Below, in pieces: positions 4,628-57,826 of a stretch of DNA of 64,000 bases; the first letter of the stretch is position 1; every line of letters starts with the position of its first letter. The notes below the pieces were generated by a model. The model was given only the letters and a program-made list of their open reading frames with translations. It made no database searches and was not told the DNA's origin. The translations under genes and the position numbers were made by a program. Origin of the DNA: Pontiella sp. (GTDB taxonomy: Bacteria > Verrucomicrobiota > Kiritimatiellia > Kiritimatiellales > Pontiellaceae); assembly GCA_050290185.1 (NCBI GenBank), contig JBNKHE010000001.1, forward strand, positions 418,713 to 482,712, given 5' to 3'.

Positions 4628-4667
4628 GGCTGGCCTCTCGCACTACCTTTTCATACATAATATCTTA

Positions 4668-4730
4668 ACCACAGAGAACACAGAGGGTCACAGAGAAATC
4701 CCCTCCGCACACCTTGGTGCTCTCTGTGGT
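4668..4730. repeat. Short-period (9-10 nt, CACAGAG) palindromic intergenic element
   Basis: ACCACAGAGAACACAGAGGGTCACAGAG...CTCTGTGGT; related copies at 36519, 62583, 63034. Confidence 0.75.
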
Positions 4731-4831
4731 GAACTGTTCGCCCCGTGGAGGAAAGCGCAGAATGTAGCGACTGCCCTATGGGATGACAAGCAGGCAGGCG
4801 TCTGAATTTGGCTTATTTAGCCCTATAAATG

Positions 4832-7868: not shown

Positions 7869-7934
7869 TGGAGGGACACTGTCCTCAGTGTCCTCATCAC
7901 ACGAAAAGTGGACAATGAGGACATTGTCCCTCCA
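7869..7934. repeat. REP-like doublet palindrome
   Basis: TGGAGGGACACTGTCCTCAGTGTCC...GGACAATGAGGACATTGTCCCTCCA; related copy 36006-36057. Confidence 0.7.
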
Positions 7935-41517: not shown

Positions 41518-41527
41518 AGAGATATCA

Positions 41528-41603
41528 AACGCAAAGGCGCAAAGCACACGAAGTTTCGCAAAGGAACCTCTGCGTAGCTTAGCGAACTTAGCGCCTTTGC
41601 GTT
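41528..41603. repeat. CGCAAAG-type short-period palindromic element
   Basis: Perfect 13-bp terminal inverted repeat AACGCAAAGGCGC/GCGCCTTTGCGTT with internal 8-10 nt units. Confidence 0.75.
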
Positions 41604-41637
41604 AAATAAAATCAACAAACAACCAAGGGAAAACAAC

Positions 41638-52110: not shown

Positions 52111-52139
52111 TTGACACCGTCCGTTCGAAGGGGAAGTAT
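52111..52139 (+). promoter_or_regulatory. Possible sigma-70 promoter for the btu operon
   Basis: TTGACA-N17-AAGTAT just upstream of the riboswitch. Confidence 0.45.
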
Positions 52140-52146
52140 GCGCCAT

Positions 52147-52242
52147 CAATCGGATGATTCGGCAAGTCCCGTGGAAATCGGGCGCTGTCGCGCAACTGTA
52201 ATCGGCCAACGGGCCGTAAGCCAGAAAACGGACATCGGATTG
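52147..52242 (+). ncRNA. Cobalamin riboswitch (compact)
   Basis: CCCGTGGAAATCGGG-CGCTGTCGCGCAACTGTAA...AAGCCAGA; flanking P1 CAATCGGATG/CATCGGATTG; upstream of B12 genes. Confidence 0.85.
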
Positions 52243-52368
52243 CTTTTGTTTGTCTCCTTCGCGGAATAAGGGGATGGCTGCCGGTTCCTACGGTCTCCTT
52301 CCCTTTGTCCTTGCGCGGGATTTTAATTAACCGACTAGCGCCCCGCGTAAGGGCAGAATGGAATACCC

Positions 52369-54378
52369 ATGCAATACCGTATCCTCGCCGTGTTCGCACT
52401 TGCGGCAACCACAACGTTTGCCGACTCGACCAACACCCTATCCAACACCGGAACGCAGGATCCCAATACCATCCTGATCACCGCAACGCGCACGAAAAGC
52501 AGCGTGCAGAACATCCCCGGAAACCCTGTCGTCATCGACTCGGACGCAATCAGGCAGGGAGGATTCACATCGCTCCCCGCCATATTGAACAAGAAGGCCG
52601 GACTGCATTTCCGCAACTATTCCGACAACCCCGGCCGCGCCTCCGTGGATATGCGCGGATTTGGAGCGAACAGTCATGGCCGGGTGCTGGTCATGATGAA
52701 TGGCCGCCGCATTAACCGACCCGACCAGGCCCCGGTCAACTGGTCGCAGATTCCGGTCGGCAACATCGACCGCATCGAAGTCGTCCGGGGAGCACACAGT
52801 GCGCTGTACGGGGACTTTGCGGTGGGTGGAGCCATCAACATCATCACCCGTCGCGGCACGGGAAAACCCGAATTCGAGGCCAGCCTCACGGGTGGCTCGT
52901 ACGGATTCAACGACGAAAGCATCAGCGCTTCCGGCGATGCAGGCGATATCGGCTACTCCACATCCATCGGGCACCAGTCCGCCGACGGATACCGGGATCG
53001 GTCTGCCTATGAAACCTGGTCGGGCACACTGAGTCTCGAAACGGATTTTTCGGATTATCTGGGATCATGGATCGATTATTCCTACATCGACTCCGACTAC
53101 GAACTGCCCGGCAGCCTGACCGAGGCCCAGGTGCGGCAGGATCGACGGCAATCCATCAACCCCGACAACGATGCCGCGGAACAGTTCCACAACATCGGAT
53201 TCGGCCTCGGGCTTTATCCCAACGAAAACAACGAGGCAACAATCGATCTCGGATTCAGCCGCAAGGACATTGAATCGAACTTCGCATCGTATTCATCCTT
53301 CAACACATGGGGGATCAACACCTATACCCTCAGCCCGAAATATGTCTACTCGGCCACCCCCTTCCACCGTGAAAACAAACTGACCCTGGGGGTCGACTTA
53401 AGCTACGACGATCTGGATGTCGACCTCTACGGCGACCGGGCCCACACCATCCGGAACGGGTCGTCCGCCGTGGGAAAAGAAACCGCCGGCGCATACGTTC
53501 ACAACGAACTCGATATTCTCGACCATCTTATCCTGTCCGGAGGAGCCCGGGTTGAGCAGGCCAAATACAGCATCAAGGAGCGCGATGCCTTCGGCGTTGT
53601 GCAACAAGACACCAGCGATACCCACAAGATATCCGCCTTCGATGCCGGAATCACCTTCCTGCCGGTCGAGCCGCTGAAGCTCTTCGCCCGGATTGACAAA
53701 CTCTACCGCCTCCCGTTTCTCGACGAGCAAATCTCCTACCAGGGCTTCGGCTCCGGCTTCAACAAGGATCTAGATCCCGAAACCGGCATGTCGTACGAGA
53801 CCGGCTTCAACCTTGCGCCCTCCGATCAGCTCGATCTCTCATGCACCCTTTTCCGCATGGATATGAAAGACGAGATCGCCTATGTCTTTCCCTCCAACGT
53901 GAACCTCGACAAAACCCGCCACCAAGGGGTGGAGCTTTCCGGCAACTGGCAGGCACTCGAACATCTGGGCCTTTACGCAAACTACACGTTCCAAAAGGTC
54001 GAATTCACCGCCGGTGCAAACAAAGGCAACGAAGTCCCGCTCGTACCCCAAAACCTGCTGACGACTGGATTCGATGCCGAACTACTGGATAACCTGCACG
54101 TCCTGACTGACGTCACCTTCACAGACTCCCAGTTTGCCGGCGGAGCCGAAAACAACGCCGCGGGATCCGAGCTCGATGCCTACACGCTGGTGGACGTTGC
54201 TTTGCGCTACACCCTTGCCTTCAAAAAGTCCGAGGTGGAGCTGTTTGCCGGCATAGACAACCTGTTCGCGGAGGAATACAGCCCCATTGCGTATTACAGC
54301 ACGTTCTCCGGTAGCATCTATGCCTACTACCCCGCGCCGGAGCGCACCTACAAGGCCGGCGTCAAAGTACGGTTCTGA
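52369..54378 (+). CDS. TonB-dependent receptor, BtuB-like
   Basis: Signal peptide, ITATR, IDRIEVVRG, GGAINIIT, terminal F; riboswitch upstream. Confidence 0.9.
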   Translation: MQYRILAVFALAATTTFADSTNTLSNTGTQDPNTILITATRTKSSVQNIPGNPVVIDSDAIRQGGFTSLPAILNKKAGLHFRNYSDNPGRASVDMRGFGANSHGRVLVMMNGRRINRPDQAPVNWSQIPVGNIDRIEVVRGAHSALYGDFAVGGAINIITRRGTGKPEFEASLTGGSYGFNDESISASGDAGDIGYSTSIGHQSADGYRDRSAYETWSGTLSLETDFSDYLGSWIDYSYIDSDYELPGSLTEAQVRQDRRQSINPDNDAAEQFHNIGFGLGLYPNENNEATIDLGFSRKDIESNFASYSSFNTWGINTYTLSPKYVYSATPFHRENKLTLGVDLSYDDLDVDLYGDRAHTIRNGSSAVGKETAGAYVHNELDILDHLILSGGARVEQAKYSIKERDAFGVVQQDTSDTHKISAFDAGITFLPVEPLKLFARIDKLYRLPFLDEQISYQGFGSGFNKDLDPETGMSYETGFNLAPSDQLDLSCTLFRMDMKDEIAYVFPSNVNLDKTRHQGVELSGNWQALEHLGLYANYTFQKVEFTAGANKGNEVPLVPQNLLTTGFDAELLDNLHVLTDVTFTDSQFAGGAENNAAGSELDAYTLVDVALRYTLAFKKSEVELFAGIDNLFAEEYSPIAYYSTFSGSIYAYYPAPERTYKAGVKVRF

Positions 54379-54390
54379 TGGAATCAAGAA

Positions 54391-54418
54391 GCGGCTTCCT
54401 TGAAACCAAGGAAGCCGC
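54391..54418 (+). other. Stem-loop after the receptor gene
   Basis: GCGGCTTCCTTG-AAAC-CAAGGAAGCCGC. Confidence 0.65.
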
Positions 54419-54456
54419 TAACATGCGTCTGCCGAAAAAGGAGACAGGAGATACCG

Positions 54457-55080
54457 ATGTACGAGTTGATGATCAAGGGCGGTCCGGTAATGTGGCCGTT
54501 GCTGGCCTGTTCAATAGTGGCGCTGGCCGTCGTCTTTGAGCGTCTCCTGTTCTGGTTGCTCGTTTCCATGCGCAAGAACCAGAAGCTCGTCAACCGCATC
54601 TTCACGCTGACCGAAAACGGCGACTTCGATACCGCCATCCAGGAAGGCGAAGCATCCCGTTGCCTGGTCTGTCGAATTCTCACTGCAGGGCTGGCGCACC
54701 GCAACTATGGCCTCGTCCAGTCGCTCGAAGCCGCCGCCATGCAGGAAATCGAAAAGATGAAGCGCTACCTCTCCGTGCTCGACACCATCATCACGCTCGC
54801 TCCCCTGCTCGGTATTCTCGGTACGGTCTCCGGCATCATCATCTCCTTTGACCTGCTTGGAACGGCGGGCATCGAGAACCCCAAGGCCGTCACTGGCGGT
54901 ATCGCCCAGGCGCTCCTCACCACCGCCGCCGGCCTCGCCATCGCCATCGTCGCCCTGCTCCCCTACAACGCCCTTACCCGCAAGGTCGAAAAGGTCACCC
55001 GCTATCTCGAACAGCTCGTCACCTGCTACGAAGTCACCGTCCAGAAGGGGATGGAGAACCGGCGGGATTCGACAAAATAA
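54457..55080 (+). CDS. exbB: ExbB/TolQ proton channel
   Basis: APLLGILGTV.G, GIAQAL.TTA.GL; start ATG 54457. Confidence 0.9.
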   Translation: MYELMIKGGPVMWPLLACSIVALAVVFERLLFWLLVSMRKNQKLVNRIFTLTENGDFDTAIQEGEASRCLVCRILTAGLAHRNYGLVQSLEAAAMQEIEKMKRYLSVLDTIITLAPLLGILGTVSGIIISFDLLGTAGIENPKAVTGGIAQALLTTAAGLAIAIVALLPYNALTRKVEKVTRYLEQLVTCYEVTVQKGMENRRDSTK

Positions 55081-55925
55081 TTAGGGACAAAATAATTCGA
55101 TGCCAATGGTTCCACAGCACCCAATCCGGCGGATTCCTGAAACGGAATTCCATGAGCTGGATTATGCAATCATGAAATTGGCTTTCGACACGCACAATGC
55201 TCTCGGTCGCTTTTATGACGAGAAGATTTACCAGGCTGAGCTGGCGAGAAACTGCAAACATTCCGGCATCGATATCTCGCTGGAATTCGAGATAAAACTG
55301 GTTCATGGCGACTATCAAAAACCGCTGTATATCGACCTACTGGCAGACAAAAGCTCGGTGTATGAACTCAAAGCGTGTTCCTGCATCGCAGAACCACATC
55401 GGATACAAGCGCTTAACTACCTCTTTGCCTCCGAGACGAAACATGGAAAAATCATAAATTTCCGCCCTAAATCCGTAGAGCACGAATTCGTCTCCACCCA
55501 ACTGGATCTTCATAAACGGCGGGAGTTCAGCATATCAGATGGAACGTGGGCATCGGGAACCCATGCTGACCAGTTAAAAGATCTAATTATCGCCCTACTC
55601 AATGACTGGGGTGCATTTTTCGATACCGACATTTATCTCGATGCCATATGCCACTTTCTCGGAGGAAAGGGTGCGGTCATTCGCGACACATCGATCCATA
55701 GCGACAATGCAGTAATAGGACGCCAAACCATACCACACCTCTCCGACACCGAGGCCTTCTGCCTGACCTCCGTATCAAAAAACATTCCGACCTATGAAAG
55801 CCACCTGATCCGATTTCTGAAACACACCAAGCTCGAAGCCATCCACTGGATAAATTTAAACCGTTCCAAAATTGGTTTTTCATCCCTGAATAGAAAATCA
55901 TTTTGTCCCTAATCATTTTGTCGAA
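55068..55925. mobile_element. Inverted-repeat-bounded GxxExxY cassette
   Basis: 30-bp terminal inverted repeats (28/30 match) at 55068-55097 and 55896-55925; splits exbB from exbD; more AT-rich than flanks. Confidence 0.7.
55100..55912 (+). CDS. GxxExxY-family (PD-(D/E)XK-like) protein
   Basis: HNALGRFYDEKIYQ, IDLL...VYELKA, Q..NYL...G.IINF. Confidence 0.8.
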   Translation: MPMVPQHPIRRIPETEFHELDYAIMKLAFDTHNALGRFYDEKIYQAELARNCKHSGIDISLEFEIKLVHGDYQKPLYIDLLADKSSVYELKACSCIAEPHRIQALNYLFASETKHGKIINFRPKSVEHEFVSTQLDLHKRREFSISDGTWASGTHADQLKDLIIALLNDWGAFFDTDIYLDAICHFLGGKGAVIRDTSIHSDNAVIGRQTIPHLSDTEAFCLTSVSKNIPTYESHLIRFLKHTKLEAIHWINLNRSKIGFSSLNRKSFCP

Positions 55926-55928
55926 CCC

Positions 55929-56336
55929 ATGAAACTAAACTGCGGATATGAAACGAAGAAGGCGCGGGTGGAAATGCTTCCGCTCATCGATGTCGTGTTT
56001 CTGCTACTCGTCTTCTTCATCTACGCCATGCTTTCCATGGTCGTTCATCACGGCCTGAAGGTGGACCTGCCATCGGCAGGAACCGCCACGCTGGAACAGA
56101 ACGACTACATCGCCATCACGATCGATGCCGACAACCGGATCTTTCTTGGCGGTGCCCCCATCGACATGGGCGAGCTTCCGGATCGCGTGCTTGAACTGCG
56201 CGGTGCGGAATCCAAACCTGTCTTCATCGACGGCGACGAGCTCGCGGATCTTGGCTTGGCGATCCAGTTGCTGGATATCCTGAAAAAATCGGGCATTGAG
56301 GAAGTTTCTTTTTCATGCAAGCAATCGCAACCATAG
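55929..56336 (+). CDS. exbD: ExbD/TolR
   Basis: PLIDVVFLLLVFF, VDLP. Confidence 0.92.
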   Translation: MKLNCGYETKKARVEMLPLIDVVFLLLVFFIYAMLSMVVHHGLKVDLPSAGTATLEQNDYIAITIDADNRIFLGGAPIDMGELPDRVLELRGAESKPVFIDGDELADLGLAIQLLDILKKSGIEEVSFSCKQSQP

Positions 56337-56926
56337 TAAGACAGCCCATCCTTGCCGGGCTGCTGCTTTCCGTGGTCGCCCACATGGCCATACTGCATCG
56401 GCACGCCATCATTGCCCCGTTGCATACAACGCCCATCCCCGAACTGGAATCAGGCCGAACGGCGGTACAACTAACCCTGATGACGACGGCCTCCGAGGTG
56501 CACATGCCACAGGAGGAACCACTCCCCGTTCCGGAACAGAACCAGCCCTCGCAGAAAGCCACCGTGGAACCCGTTGCAACCAATGCCGTTCCCCCATCCG
56601 CACCCCGGGAACCCAATACGGCAACGGTGCCGACTGAAGATACCGGCATCACATCCGAGGCTGTGGTCGTCGGCACCTACCATCCTGTCTATCCGCATAT
56701 TTCGACACGGCGAAGAGAAGAAGGTTCTGTAATGATATCGGTTCAGGTGCTTTCCAACGGGACCCCGGGCATCGTTGAAATCCTTGAATCCAGCGGCTAT
56801 CGCAGGCTAGACCAGGCCGCCATTGATGGCGTCGGAAAAACGACTTTTAAACCCGCTCTGCAGGATGGTCTTCCTGTCGAATCCACCACGGAACTCACAT
56901 ACACCTTCAGGTTGACCGATGATTAA
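56315..56926 (+). CDS. tonB: Energy transducer TonB
   Basis: TM anchor, Pro-rich linker, YP..RR.EG.V, SSG..LD.AA, FKPA. Confidence 0.85.
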   Translation: MQAIATIVRQPILAGLLLSVVAHMAILHRHAIIAPLHTTPIPELESGRTAVQLTLMTTASEVHMPQEEPLPVPEQNQPSQKATVEPVATNAVPPSAPREPNTATVPTEDTGITSEAVVVGTYHPVYPHISTRRREEGSVMISVQVLSNGTPGIVEILESSGYRRLDQAAIDGVGKTTFKPALQDGLPVESTTELTYTFRLTDD

Positions 56927-57824
56927 GCGGATCCCAATAGTACTACTTACCATCCTGCTTGCGGCCTGCGGACGGCACCCCCCCCCCCTGCCCGGGAATC
57001 CGGAGCGCATCGTTTCCATGGCACCGAGCATCACCGAATGCATCTTTGCCGCCGGCGGCGGTGACCGTCTGGTCGGGGTCAGCGCCTTCTGCACCTATCC
57101 GGAAGCCGTCCATCACCTGCCGGCGATCGGTGGATACACCGATACGAACTATGAAATGATTTATTCCCTAGAGCCGGATCTCGTGTTCATTCTCGATGAA
57201 CACGGTTCCGCCGCCGAACGTCTTGCCGCGCTGGGAATCCCCTCGTTCAAGGTGGACACCTCCACCATTCCCGCCATTCTCGAAAGCCTGCAGAACCTGG
57301 GATCACTCTTCCACACCGAAGAAACTGCCGACCTGGAAGTTGCCCGGCTGAAGCAACGGATGGAGGAAATCCAAACGCGAACACGCGATGCACCGCCCCG
57401 CCGCGTCCTCATTTCCGTCGGGCGCAACATAGGAACCGGGGACCTGTCCGATGTCTACGTCGCCGGGCGGAACACCCTCTATAATGAAATGCTCGAAATG
57501 CTTGGGGCGCAGAACGTCTATTCGGGCAACCTGGAATACGCCAAGCTCTCCCGCGAAGGCCTCATGCGGCTCGCCCCCGATGTCATTATCGATCTGGTTC
57601 CCGATCTGGCGTCCTACGGCAACCTGACCGCCGATGACGTTCGGCAGGAATGGAACATCCTGGCCAGCGTACCCGCCGTGCGGGACGGACAGGTCCATGT
57701 TTTGAGCAACAACTATGTCTGCATCCCCGGCCCGCGCTTCGTGCTCACATTCGAAGACATCGCCCGCGCCGTCTATCCCGAATGCTTCGCGGCAACAGCA
57801 CAAAATAATTTGGTGACAGAATAA
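56919..57824 (+). CDS. Cobalamin-binding lipoprotein (BtuF-like)
   Basis: Lipobox LAAC, RIVSMAPSITE, PGPR. Confidence 0.85.
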   Translation: MIKRIPIVLLTILLAACGRHPPPLPGNPERIVSMAPSITECIFAAGGGDRLVGVSAFCTYPEAVHHLPAIGGYTDTNYEMIYSLEPDLVFILDEHGSAAERLAALGIPSFKVDTSTIPAILESLQNLGSLFHTEETADLEVARLKQRMEEIQTRTRDAPPRRVLISVGRNIGTGDLSDVYVAGRNTLYNEMLEMLGAQNVYSGNLEYAKLSREGLMRLAPDVIIDLVPDLASYGNLTADDVRQEWNILASVPAVRDGQVHVLSNNYVCIPGPRFVLTFEDIARAVYPECFAATAQNNLVTE

Positions 57825-57826
57825 TT

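Follow-up and report, generated by a model that had tools for sequence, protein, structure and literature searches.

The stretch of DNA analysed here, hereafter the window, comprises 64,000 nucleotides of Pontiella sp. (GenBank assembly GCA_050290185.1, contig JBNKHE010000001.1, positions 418,713 to 482,712 of the forward strand). Between its exbB and exbD genes lies an insert of 858 bp (55068-55925), hereafter the cassette, which consists of a gene for a two-domain GxxExxY/PD-(D/E)XK protein enclosed by inverted arms built from tandem boxes. Gene and tandem-unit arms are conserved together as one unit. The features of the locus are as follows.

54457..55080, + strand: exbB (MotA_ExbB), from the open reading frame (ORF) list, PF01618 with E 1e-30; its last five codons and TAA lie within the left arm.
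55065..55097, no strand: left arm, two 12-nt boxes GACAAAATAATT at 15-nt spacing, from the repeat search and a chance test.
55100..55912, + strand: cassette ORF of 270 aa, two-domain GxxExxY/PD-(D/E)XK, which begins 2 nt past the left arm.
55154..55477, + strand: N-terminal catalytic PD-(D/E)XK domain (aa 19-126), from PF13366, TIGR04256 and fold matches.
55505..55909, + strand: C-terminal domain (aa 136-270), a predicted second, degenerate PD-(D/E)XK-like fold, from the order of secondary-structure elements and low-Z fold matches.
55896..55928, no strand: right arm, two boxes AATCATTTTGTC (reverse complement of GACAAAATGATT), containing the final codons and the stop codon of the cassette ORF.
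55929..56336, + strand: exbD, PF02472 with E 3e-24; its ATG directly follows the right arm.

The left arm (55068-55097) reads TTCGACAAAATAATTAGGGACAAAATAATT and the reverse complement of 55896-55925 reads TTCGACAAAATGATTAGGGACAAAATGATT, with agreement at 28 of 30 positions. These inverted arms and their 15-nt tandem units had been described in a first-pass annotation of the window; the repeat search extended the pair to 33 nt (55065-55097 and 55896-55928, 91% complementary, 798 nt in between). The 12-nt box GACAAAATRATT is present twice in each arm at a spacing of 15 nt. With up to one mismatch permitted, it occurs six times in the window compared to 0.49 expected occurrences, and six were reached in none of 100 shuffles. 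The fit of the arms to the neighbouring genes, likewise part of the first-pass annotation, was found to be exact to the base. The stop codon of exbB (TAA, 55078-55080) lies inside the first unit of the left arm and that of the cassette gene (TAA, 55910-55912) within the right arm, while the ATG of exbD is located at 55929, 3 nt beyond 55925. The distance from the cassette stop to this ATG is 17 nt, and no Shine-Dalgarno-like sequence could be read from the window sequence upstream of exbD. The gene is also richer in A + T than its neighbours, as had been noted: its G + C content is 46.9% (52.8% at third codon positions), compared to 59.6% (80.3%) for exbB and 53.9% for exbD. Each arm can be read as an inward-facing sigma-70-like promoter (55069-55096 on the + strand and 55924-55897 on the - strand; TCGACA, 16 nt, AATAAT; matches at 10 and 9 of 12 positions), a resemblance which is due to the spacing of the boxes.

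The cassette protein matches the families PDDEXK_3 (PF13366, 74 bits, cut-off 22) and GxxExxY (TIGR04256, 70.5 bits, cut-off 35), in both cases over aa 19-128. These were the only matches in the profile searches, which yielded no transposase or recombinase domain (DDE, serine, tyrosine or HUH), in line with the absence of DDE and recombinase motifs remarked on in the first-pass annotation. With 270 aa, compared to single-domain profile lengths of 116 and 117 (typically about 116-135 aa), the protein belongs to a long subfamily. Clusters of about 261 aa in the ESM Atlas are commonest in Verrucomicrobiota and Planctomycetota. When 19 full-length homologues were aligned end to end, G36, E41, Y44, E62, K74, D79, E89, K91, Q103 and Y107 were invariant in all 19, indicating that the PD-(D/E)XK site, including D79, E89 and K91, is intact. 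The C-terminal half has invariant residues of its own (R140, W170, G171, Y232, W250 and N252) and lacks the D/ExK motif.

The whole protein was modelled by AlphaFold2 with a predicted local distance difference test score (pLDDT) of 93.6 and a predicted template modelling score of 0.87. Both halves of the model follow the order helix-helix-strand-strand-strand-helix-strand-strand. Via its N-terminal domain, the whole model matches Cas4 (4ic1, Z 7.9), BpuSI (7.7) and 3ijm (7.4). When the C-terminal half was folded alone (pLDDT 92.4), restriction-endonuclease-like chains dominated the best matches, with low Z values (3ijm 5.6, BstYI 5.4, CinB 5.3). The earlier claim of a second, degenerate domain copy is therefore backed by the order of elements in the predicted structure but not by profile comparison, since hhalign placed the two halves colinearly over 103 columns without significance (E 0.24). 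The models suggest that the cassette protein is a fused pseudo-dimer with a single active site. Searches of the PDB with the N-terminal domain profile and with the short GxxExxY protein described below yielded no sequence relative; Foldseek gave no match at E 1e-3 or better, and PADLOC and PHROGs gave none.

In order to place the cassette in a wider context, 41 related genomes were scanned; the window's own genome is referred to as G000. A first set of 20 homologue loci was obtained from 19 relatives and G000. At 18 of these, two-box arms occur on both sides, abutting the start of the gene and overlapping its 3' end. The remaining two are L027, with one matching unit per side, and L020, which is cut by a contig end. 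A second set of 24 loci from named genomes was found with an alignment of 8 closer sequences. Seven of them repeat earlier places, and the 17 further loci comprise 12 with clear two-box arms, three with weak arms, one that is cut and one without arms, a partial match in a Pirellulaceae bin. The cultured type strain Pontiella sulfatireligans F21 carries the cassette at the same exbB|exbD junction (L062). At least 15 of the 20 cassettes of the first set are co-oriented with the genes on both sides, from which they are separated by a few to tens of nt.

The box core C-A-R-R-A-Y-N-A-T-K is retained across protein clades that are 33-63% identical, and the box variants track these clades across two host families. 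The ninth, variable box position and the spacer are often non-complementary between the arms of a cassette. Comparison of arm against arm over 563 aligned columns resulted in 502 matches, 22 A.C-type and 10 G.U-type differences (on the sense strand), 22 transversions and 7 indels. This pattern favours a conserved recognition motif over strict pairing.

The only other GxxExxY gene of G000 encodes the short one-domain form and is flanked by 24-nt arms, which are 96% complementary and consist of CACAGAGRA units at a spacing of 9 nt. Tandem-unit inverted arms, for which the first-pass annotation had proposed to survey other GxxExxY genes, are hence found at the short gene of the same genome as well as at the 18 long-gene loci. 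Each gene type has its own repeat type, the long gene GACARAATRATT boxes and the short gene CACAGAG boxes. The spacing of the boxes goes with protein size (9 nt for the one-domain and 15-16 nt for the two-domain form), which hints that one protein occupies one box.

The number of arms in a genome was related to the presence of the long gene, which was called at E < 1e-30 in 23 of the 41 genomes. The exact arm pattern gave no control matches in any of the 41. Genomes with the gene have a median of 14 arms (n = 23) compared to a median of 1 in genomes without it (n = 18). The Mann-Whitney p value of 1e-4 was obtained without kinship correction and overstates the case because the genomes are kin; the direction is the same in both host families. 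A rarer box variant, ACARGAYGAT, adds little: of the five genomes concerned, two have hairpins in addition to the arms of the gene, one carries just those two arms, and in the other two there are none.

Within G000, arms are present at 12 loci, compared to one match for a reversed control. These are the cassette itself, six gene-less palindromes of about 70-120 nt and five solo or degenerate arms. Gene-less hairpins formed by GACARAATRATT-type boxes measure about 75 nt. The dispersed arms of the cassette's family sit in short spacers between co-directional genes, and at three or more places an arm forms the end of the neighbouring gene. Two gene-less palindromes fold as single-stranded DNA hairpins with z values of -4.2 and -2.5. 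It is likely that gene-less hairpins spread to other gene junctions. Two members of the repeat families concerned lie elsewhere in the window.

57799..57826, + strand: solo arm, CACAAAATAATT TGGT GACAGAATAATT, 16-nt spacing, of the same repeat superfamily as the cassette arms, from a box scan.
4665..4733, no strand: gene-less hairpin of the CACAGAG family, from the inverted-pair search; this family brackets the short GxxExxY gene of the genome.

The solo arm is located between the genes for a periplasmic binding protein and an ABC ATPase. The upstream gene takes its final codons and its stop from the arm, and the ATG of the downstream gene adjoins it directly. In a relative (L030), the same junction carries a full gene-bearing cassette. 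It had been proposed that the many empty palindromes of the window are footprints of the element. However, the solo arm alone belongs to the family of the cassette; the six inverted pairs among the other palindromes contain no cassette unit, and four of them derive from neither the cassette unit nor the CACAGAG unit. The intergenic palindromes at 7869-7934 and 41523-41608 consist of other short units (GGACAnTG-type and GCAAAG-type).

The CACAGAG family occurs at 23 loci of the genome, compared to none in the control. At C13:258-729 and C7:164005-164512 of G000, arms of this type bracket small ORFs other than GxxExxY genes, one of 96 aa without a Pfam match and one of 106 aa that weakly matches HTH_IclR; the arms of the latter (C7) are direct, not inverted. 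Arms of the cassette's own family recur in the large genome G007 at spacings of about 500 nt (C1:1466293-1467316) and of 729 and 332 nt (C3:1195459-1196545), which suggests arrays of cassettes or hairpins. Nearly the entire 539-nt contig C121 of G000 consists of TATGATTTTGTC-like and related repeat units and is probably an unassembled repeat array. Two integron-type integrase genes exceed the TIGR02249 cut-off in G000 (C5:3602-4534 and C3:254837-255775). Both are on other contigs than the cassette, and a rough scan around them found no recurring palindrome array.

The operon that hosts the cassette is a vitamin-B12 uptake operon. Its order is an adenosylcobalamin (AdoCbl) riboswitch-like leader, TonB-dependent receptor, exbB, cassette, exbD, tonB, periplasmic binding protein, ABC ATPase and permease. 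The AdoCbl (B12) riboswitch-like leader upstream of the receptor gene (52134-52283) scores 47.3 bits (E 1e-7), below the gathering score of 50, and is therefore missed at the gathering threshold, at which no Rfam family was found in the window. With this leader, the entire operon including the cassette would be B12-controlled. No terminator-like sites were found in 54400-56400.

To follow the insert at its own site, 22 exbB-exbD loci were examined. Six junctions, including one divided between two contigs, are filled, eight are empty, three carry remnants, four contain unrelated repeats or spacers and one is cut. Empty exbB-exbD sites, which the first-pass annotation had suggested looking for in relatives, do therefore exist; the gene is not fixed at this locus. 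In the empty junctions exbB and exbD overlap or abut, e.g. ATGCGACTGA, and the junction sequence of empty-site relatives reads ...GGAGAAACAATGCGACTGAGC... No target-site duplication was visible when filled and empty junctions were compared. The remnants are a left arm followed by ATG, about 13 codons and a right-arm stump (L048), a one-box mini-palindrome and a single box. At L077 and L079 the arms are intact and the gene between them carries an internal deletion; these loci link the gene-bearing to the gene-less form. Cassette-free junctions at L040, L047 and L051 contain unrelated short tandem repeats (7-nt GGCAATA, a unit of about 21 nt and heptamers), and L049 has a different hairpin-like spacer. 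This variety indicates that the exbB|exbD junction is a hot spot for several kinds of repeat DNA. No excised form of this strain was seen in the contigs of four DNA runs, in which rare forms cannot be displayed. Contigs that join across the cassette correspond to the empty junctions of relatives (17 other letters between the sides) or to gene-less hairpins elsewhere, which match over just 27-29 nt per side.

On a tree of ExbB and ExbD, the filled state needs five changes, and strongly supported branches force at least three of them. In this tree G000 falls with G011 and G023 (98), whose sites are empty, and G001 with G007 (98), where the site is likewise empty. The cassette tree, unlike the flank tree, places G000 and G001 as sisters (100/99). 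Clades of cassette proteins are specific to a locus (exbB|exbD 95/92, ABC|FecCD 98/93, upstream of dprA 100/99), and those nearest to the cassette occupy three different junctions within one kind of uptake operon, namely exbB|exbD, binding protein|ATPase and ATPase|permease. Since copies with the gene group according to locus and have diverged deeply, the gene looks like an old resident and not like one that has hopped recently. Identity windows across 18 genomes showed no clear co-conversion signal near the junction.

Turnover of the hairpins was followed by comparison with the related species G041, which has 31 arms; 17 of 19 arm sites have orthologous flanks in G000. At these 17 junctions G000 keeps a hairpin of the same family in three cases and a decayed one in one case, while at least three have a hairpin of another family, one of them at 4639-4751 of the window, and the rest have short or unrelated spacers. 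Hairpins are hence gained and lost at junctions, and a single junction can be occupied by different families. Use of G041 as a near-identical strain for recent gain or loss was ruled out, as it is about 75-92% identical to G000 (27 sampled loci). One tract differs from this background. Contig C92 of G041 (L110) is 97.3% identical to 52134-56767 of the window, with a syntenic continuation of 72-80%. The identity is 90% at the riboswitch and reaches 98.4-99.6% around exbB, the cassette and exbD. The tract spans at least 4.6 kb, from the riboswitch to the contig end. Its arms show no differences to G000, the cassette gene 4 synonymous and 6 non-synonymous ones and exbB 5 synonymous and none non-synonymous. 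Either the operon with its cassette was recently exchanged between species, or the contig of the metagenome bin is chimeric.

By analogy with REPIN/RAYT systems (in which RAYT means a tyrosine transposase that is associated with REPs, i.e. repetitive extragenic palindromes), we see an even chance that the insert is the gene-bearing copy of a gene-plus-hairpin family, in which the nuclease would recognise the paired boxes and maintain or spread gene-less hairpins. The nuclease would act on the boxes, with one protein molecule binding one box, and with its single active site it may be a nickase. The spacing of 15-16 nt for the two-domain and 9 nt for the one-domain form fits one footprint per protein. 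The arms would probably be read as a folded hairpin on single-stranded DNA and be nicked there. Copying or removal of the hairpin would then fall to replication or repair by the host, since rejoining DNA is beyond a hydrolytic nuclease. The gene-bearing copy would persist as an old, locus-bound resident. Within the operon, a translational chain from exbB via the cassette to exbD is suggested by the absence of a Shine-Dalgarno-like sequence ahead of exbD and by the position of the cassette stop shortly upstream of its ATG. Such a chain would make the insert tolerable, with little harm to the operon, and the ORF hard to lose. More tentatively, and in our estimate somewhat less probable than its opposite, the family could be an undescribed class of replicator. 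In that case a hydrolytic PD-(D/E)XK nuclease, in place of a transposase or recombinase, would read tandem boxes on folded DNA and drive the spread and turnover of hairpins at operon junctions, while its gene would be carried within one of the hairpins, chained to its neighbours in translation and nearly harmless. The family would then be convergent with REPIN/RAYT and employ a new chemistry. The first-pass annotation had spoken of a non-classical mobile element that targets gene junctions. The conserved unit, its operon orientation and the stops supplied by the arms agree with this, whereas movement was not seen and the copies cluster by locus.

Several observations weigh against a nuclease-driven hairpin family. 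Movement of the cassette was not observed, and no near-identical second gene-bearing copy was seen among the sampled copies, which are at most 63% identical at the amino acid level, except for one 98% copy in the possibly chimeric contig. Copy numbers are low, with 0-43 arms per genome compared to the hundreds reported for REPINs. The p value for co-occurrence is inflated by kinship, and individual genomes deviate from the trend: G003, G014 and G004 have 9, 6 and 5 arms without the long gene, while G012, G028 and G030 have the gene yet only 0-1 pattern matches, as their box variants partly escape the pattern. G017 has no arms, and its long-gene match is split in two with an in-frame TGA. Arm pairing is not strictly kept, as seen from the transversions, the indels and the excess of A.C (22) over G.U (10) in the 563 columns. 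Each arm also matches the inward sigma-70 promoter consensus (10/12 and 9/12). PD-(D/E)XK enzymes hydrolyse DNA and, to our knowledge, do not perform strand transfer; spread would hence need host functions that we cannot name. Given the CACAGAG arms around ORFs other than GxxExxY genes and the two integron-type integrases, another enzyme could act on the hairpins.

It is unlikely that the cassette is a homing-type selfish gene, whose nuclease would cut the empty exbB|exbD junction so that repair installs the cassette, with the arms as a by-product or for expression. The patchily filled or cleanly empty junction, with five changes of the filled state on the ExbB and ExbD tree, fits this idea, as does the single clade of cassette proteins at exbB|exbD, in which G000 and G001 are sisters in contrast to the flank tree. 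The same applies to G041, which is 72-92% identical elsewhere and 97-99.6% over at least 4.6 kb around the cassette, rising towards it. However, this tract may stem from a chimeric metagenome-bin contig and spans the whole operon up to the riboswitch, the windows across 18 genomes revealed no rise in identity near the junction, and the empty junction bears no likeness to the boxes. Homing would also leave the conserved box-built arms, the gene-less hairpins at unrelated junctions and their gene-linked numbers unexplained. We consider it similarly improbable that the cassette acts at the RNA level like an intervening sequence (IVS) of 23S rRNA, with arms that pair in the transcript and a stem that is cut by RNase III or the encoded nuclease, tuning the expression of exbB, cassette and exbD. 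The shared orientation of at least 15 of 20 cassettes with both neighbours, the stop codons provided by the arms and their position next to start codons are consistent with a role in the transcript, and the minimum-energy RNA fold of 55040-55960 pairs both arms (z -2.6, 20 shuffles). Known IVS elements are likewise stems that enclose a small ORF (PMC4990558). On the other hand, only 10 of 54 sense-strand arm substitutions keep pairing (with 22 A.C differences and 22 transversions, besides 7 indels), the ninth box position and the spacer are non-complementary between arms, there is no Rfam match in the window, and the dispersal and turnover of hairpins would be left without explanation.

Even less credence is given to the gene as a passenger, which landed in the loop of a junction repeat made or moved by host processes or by an integron-type integrase. 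Such an origin is suggested by the junction hairpins of several unrelated repeat families in the genome, by the junction that holds different families in two species, by the CACAGAG arms around other ORFs and by the two integrase genes above the curated cut-off. It is contradicted by the presence of the gene within two-box arms at 18 of 20 and 12 of 17 loci, by box variants that track the protein clades across two host families and by hairpin numbers that follow the gene. Moreover, the outer ends agree with six of the seven attC core positions in just two cases, this copy and its closest relative, and do not match in other cassettes, and the rough scan around the integrase genes showed no recurring palindrome array. 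Very improbable is a purely regulatory module, with a protein that regulates by binding the boxes and arms that serve it as operators or promoters. The inward matches to TCGACA-16-AATAAT (10/12, and 9/12 on the other strand) are in its favour, with five sites in 2 kb compared to 1.4 expected, but AT-rich boxes mimic -10 hexamers by composition alone, and the -10-like hexamer ends just 3 nt ahead of the ATG. A pure binding protein would also not need the D-ExK triad, which is invariant.

Among known systems, REPIN/RAYT comes closest to the nuclease-and-hairpin reading. RAYT genes are flanked by an inverted dispersed repeat, have their own repeat type and persist as locus-bound old copies (PMC3337134). 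Similarly, inverted copies of a dispersed repeat stand on either side of the cassette gene, and doublets without the gene fold into hairpins between genes. Each gene type again has its own repeat, with gene copies that are distinct, locus-bound and old. As to a single, vertically inherited copy per gene type, the locus-specific clades speak for it, but the patchy presence on the flank tree and the near-identical tract in a distant genome do not. The differences concern the enzyme, a PD-(D/E)XK hydrolytic nuclease instead of an HUH-Y1 (IS200-like) transposase, and the arms, which consist of tandem boxes instead of the single imperfect palindrome of a REP. In addition, copies of the cassette family number tens and not hundreds, and the unit is set within operons, its stops and starts matched to the adjoining genes.

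Insertion sequences with miniature inverted-repeat derivatives share the terminal inverted repeats around one gene and internally deleted forms (L048, L077 and L079), down to arm-loop-arm. Unlike them, the cassette has no transposase or recombinase domain, no visible target-site duplication and no near-identical gene-bearing copies. Free-standing homing endonuclease genes resemble it as lone nuclease genes between conserved genes with a patchy distribution at one exact site. Intronless homing occurs in phages, and PD-(D/E)XK homing enzymes exist; homing genes are not known to have inverted arms made of boxes or hairpin derivatives that lack the gene and lie at unrelated sites. The attC site of integrons is an imperfect palindrome with two protein-binding boxes per arm and the core GTTRRRY, which acts when folded. 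The cassette shares the imperfect palindrome with two boxes per arm, but its gene lies inside the palindrome and not beside it, the core sites are not conserved and no integrase adjoins.

Two further comparisons concern elements with an ORF inside a host gene or transcript. The ORF-bearing intervening sequence of the Coxiella 23S rRNA is an inverted-repeat stem around a small ORF with sporadic distribution (PMC4990558); it differs from the cassette by its position in rRNA, as the latter is found at an mRNA cistron junction between protein-coding genes and belongs to another ORF family. The ShiLan-type homing insertion element (PMC11855218, abstract) is likewise an unorthodox nuclease-bearing insertion, which is fitted to a host gene and causes little harm. 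It differs in that it lies in frame inside a phage gene and encodes an HNH nuclease, and its abstract mentions neither box-built arms nor hairpin derivatives.

In a search of article texts, no description of a GxxExxY gene in a box-built hairpin arrangement was found, and in one paper that contains the term GxxExxY it serves as an annotation label only. A PD-(D/E)XK survey (PMC3424549) gives the function of PDDEXK_3 as 'Unknown'. Proteins of the GxxExxY/PDDEXK_3 type are common in bacterial genomes with their function listed as unknown, and are here tied to a box-built hairpin repeat. This association is directly testable, since Pontiella sulfatireligans F21 is a carrier at exbB|exbD. If the link is functional, it would provide a function for a large orphan family and explain a class of intergenic palindromes at operon junctions. 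It would also represent a second, independent case of a long-lived partnership between a repeat and an enzyme inside bacterial chromosomes.

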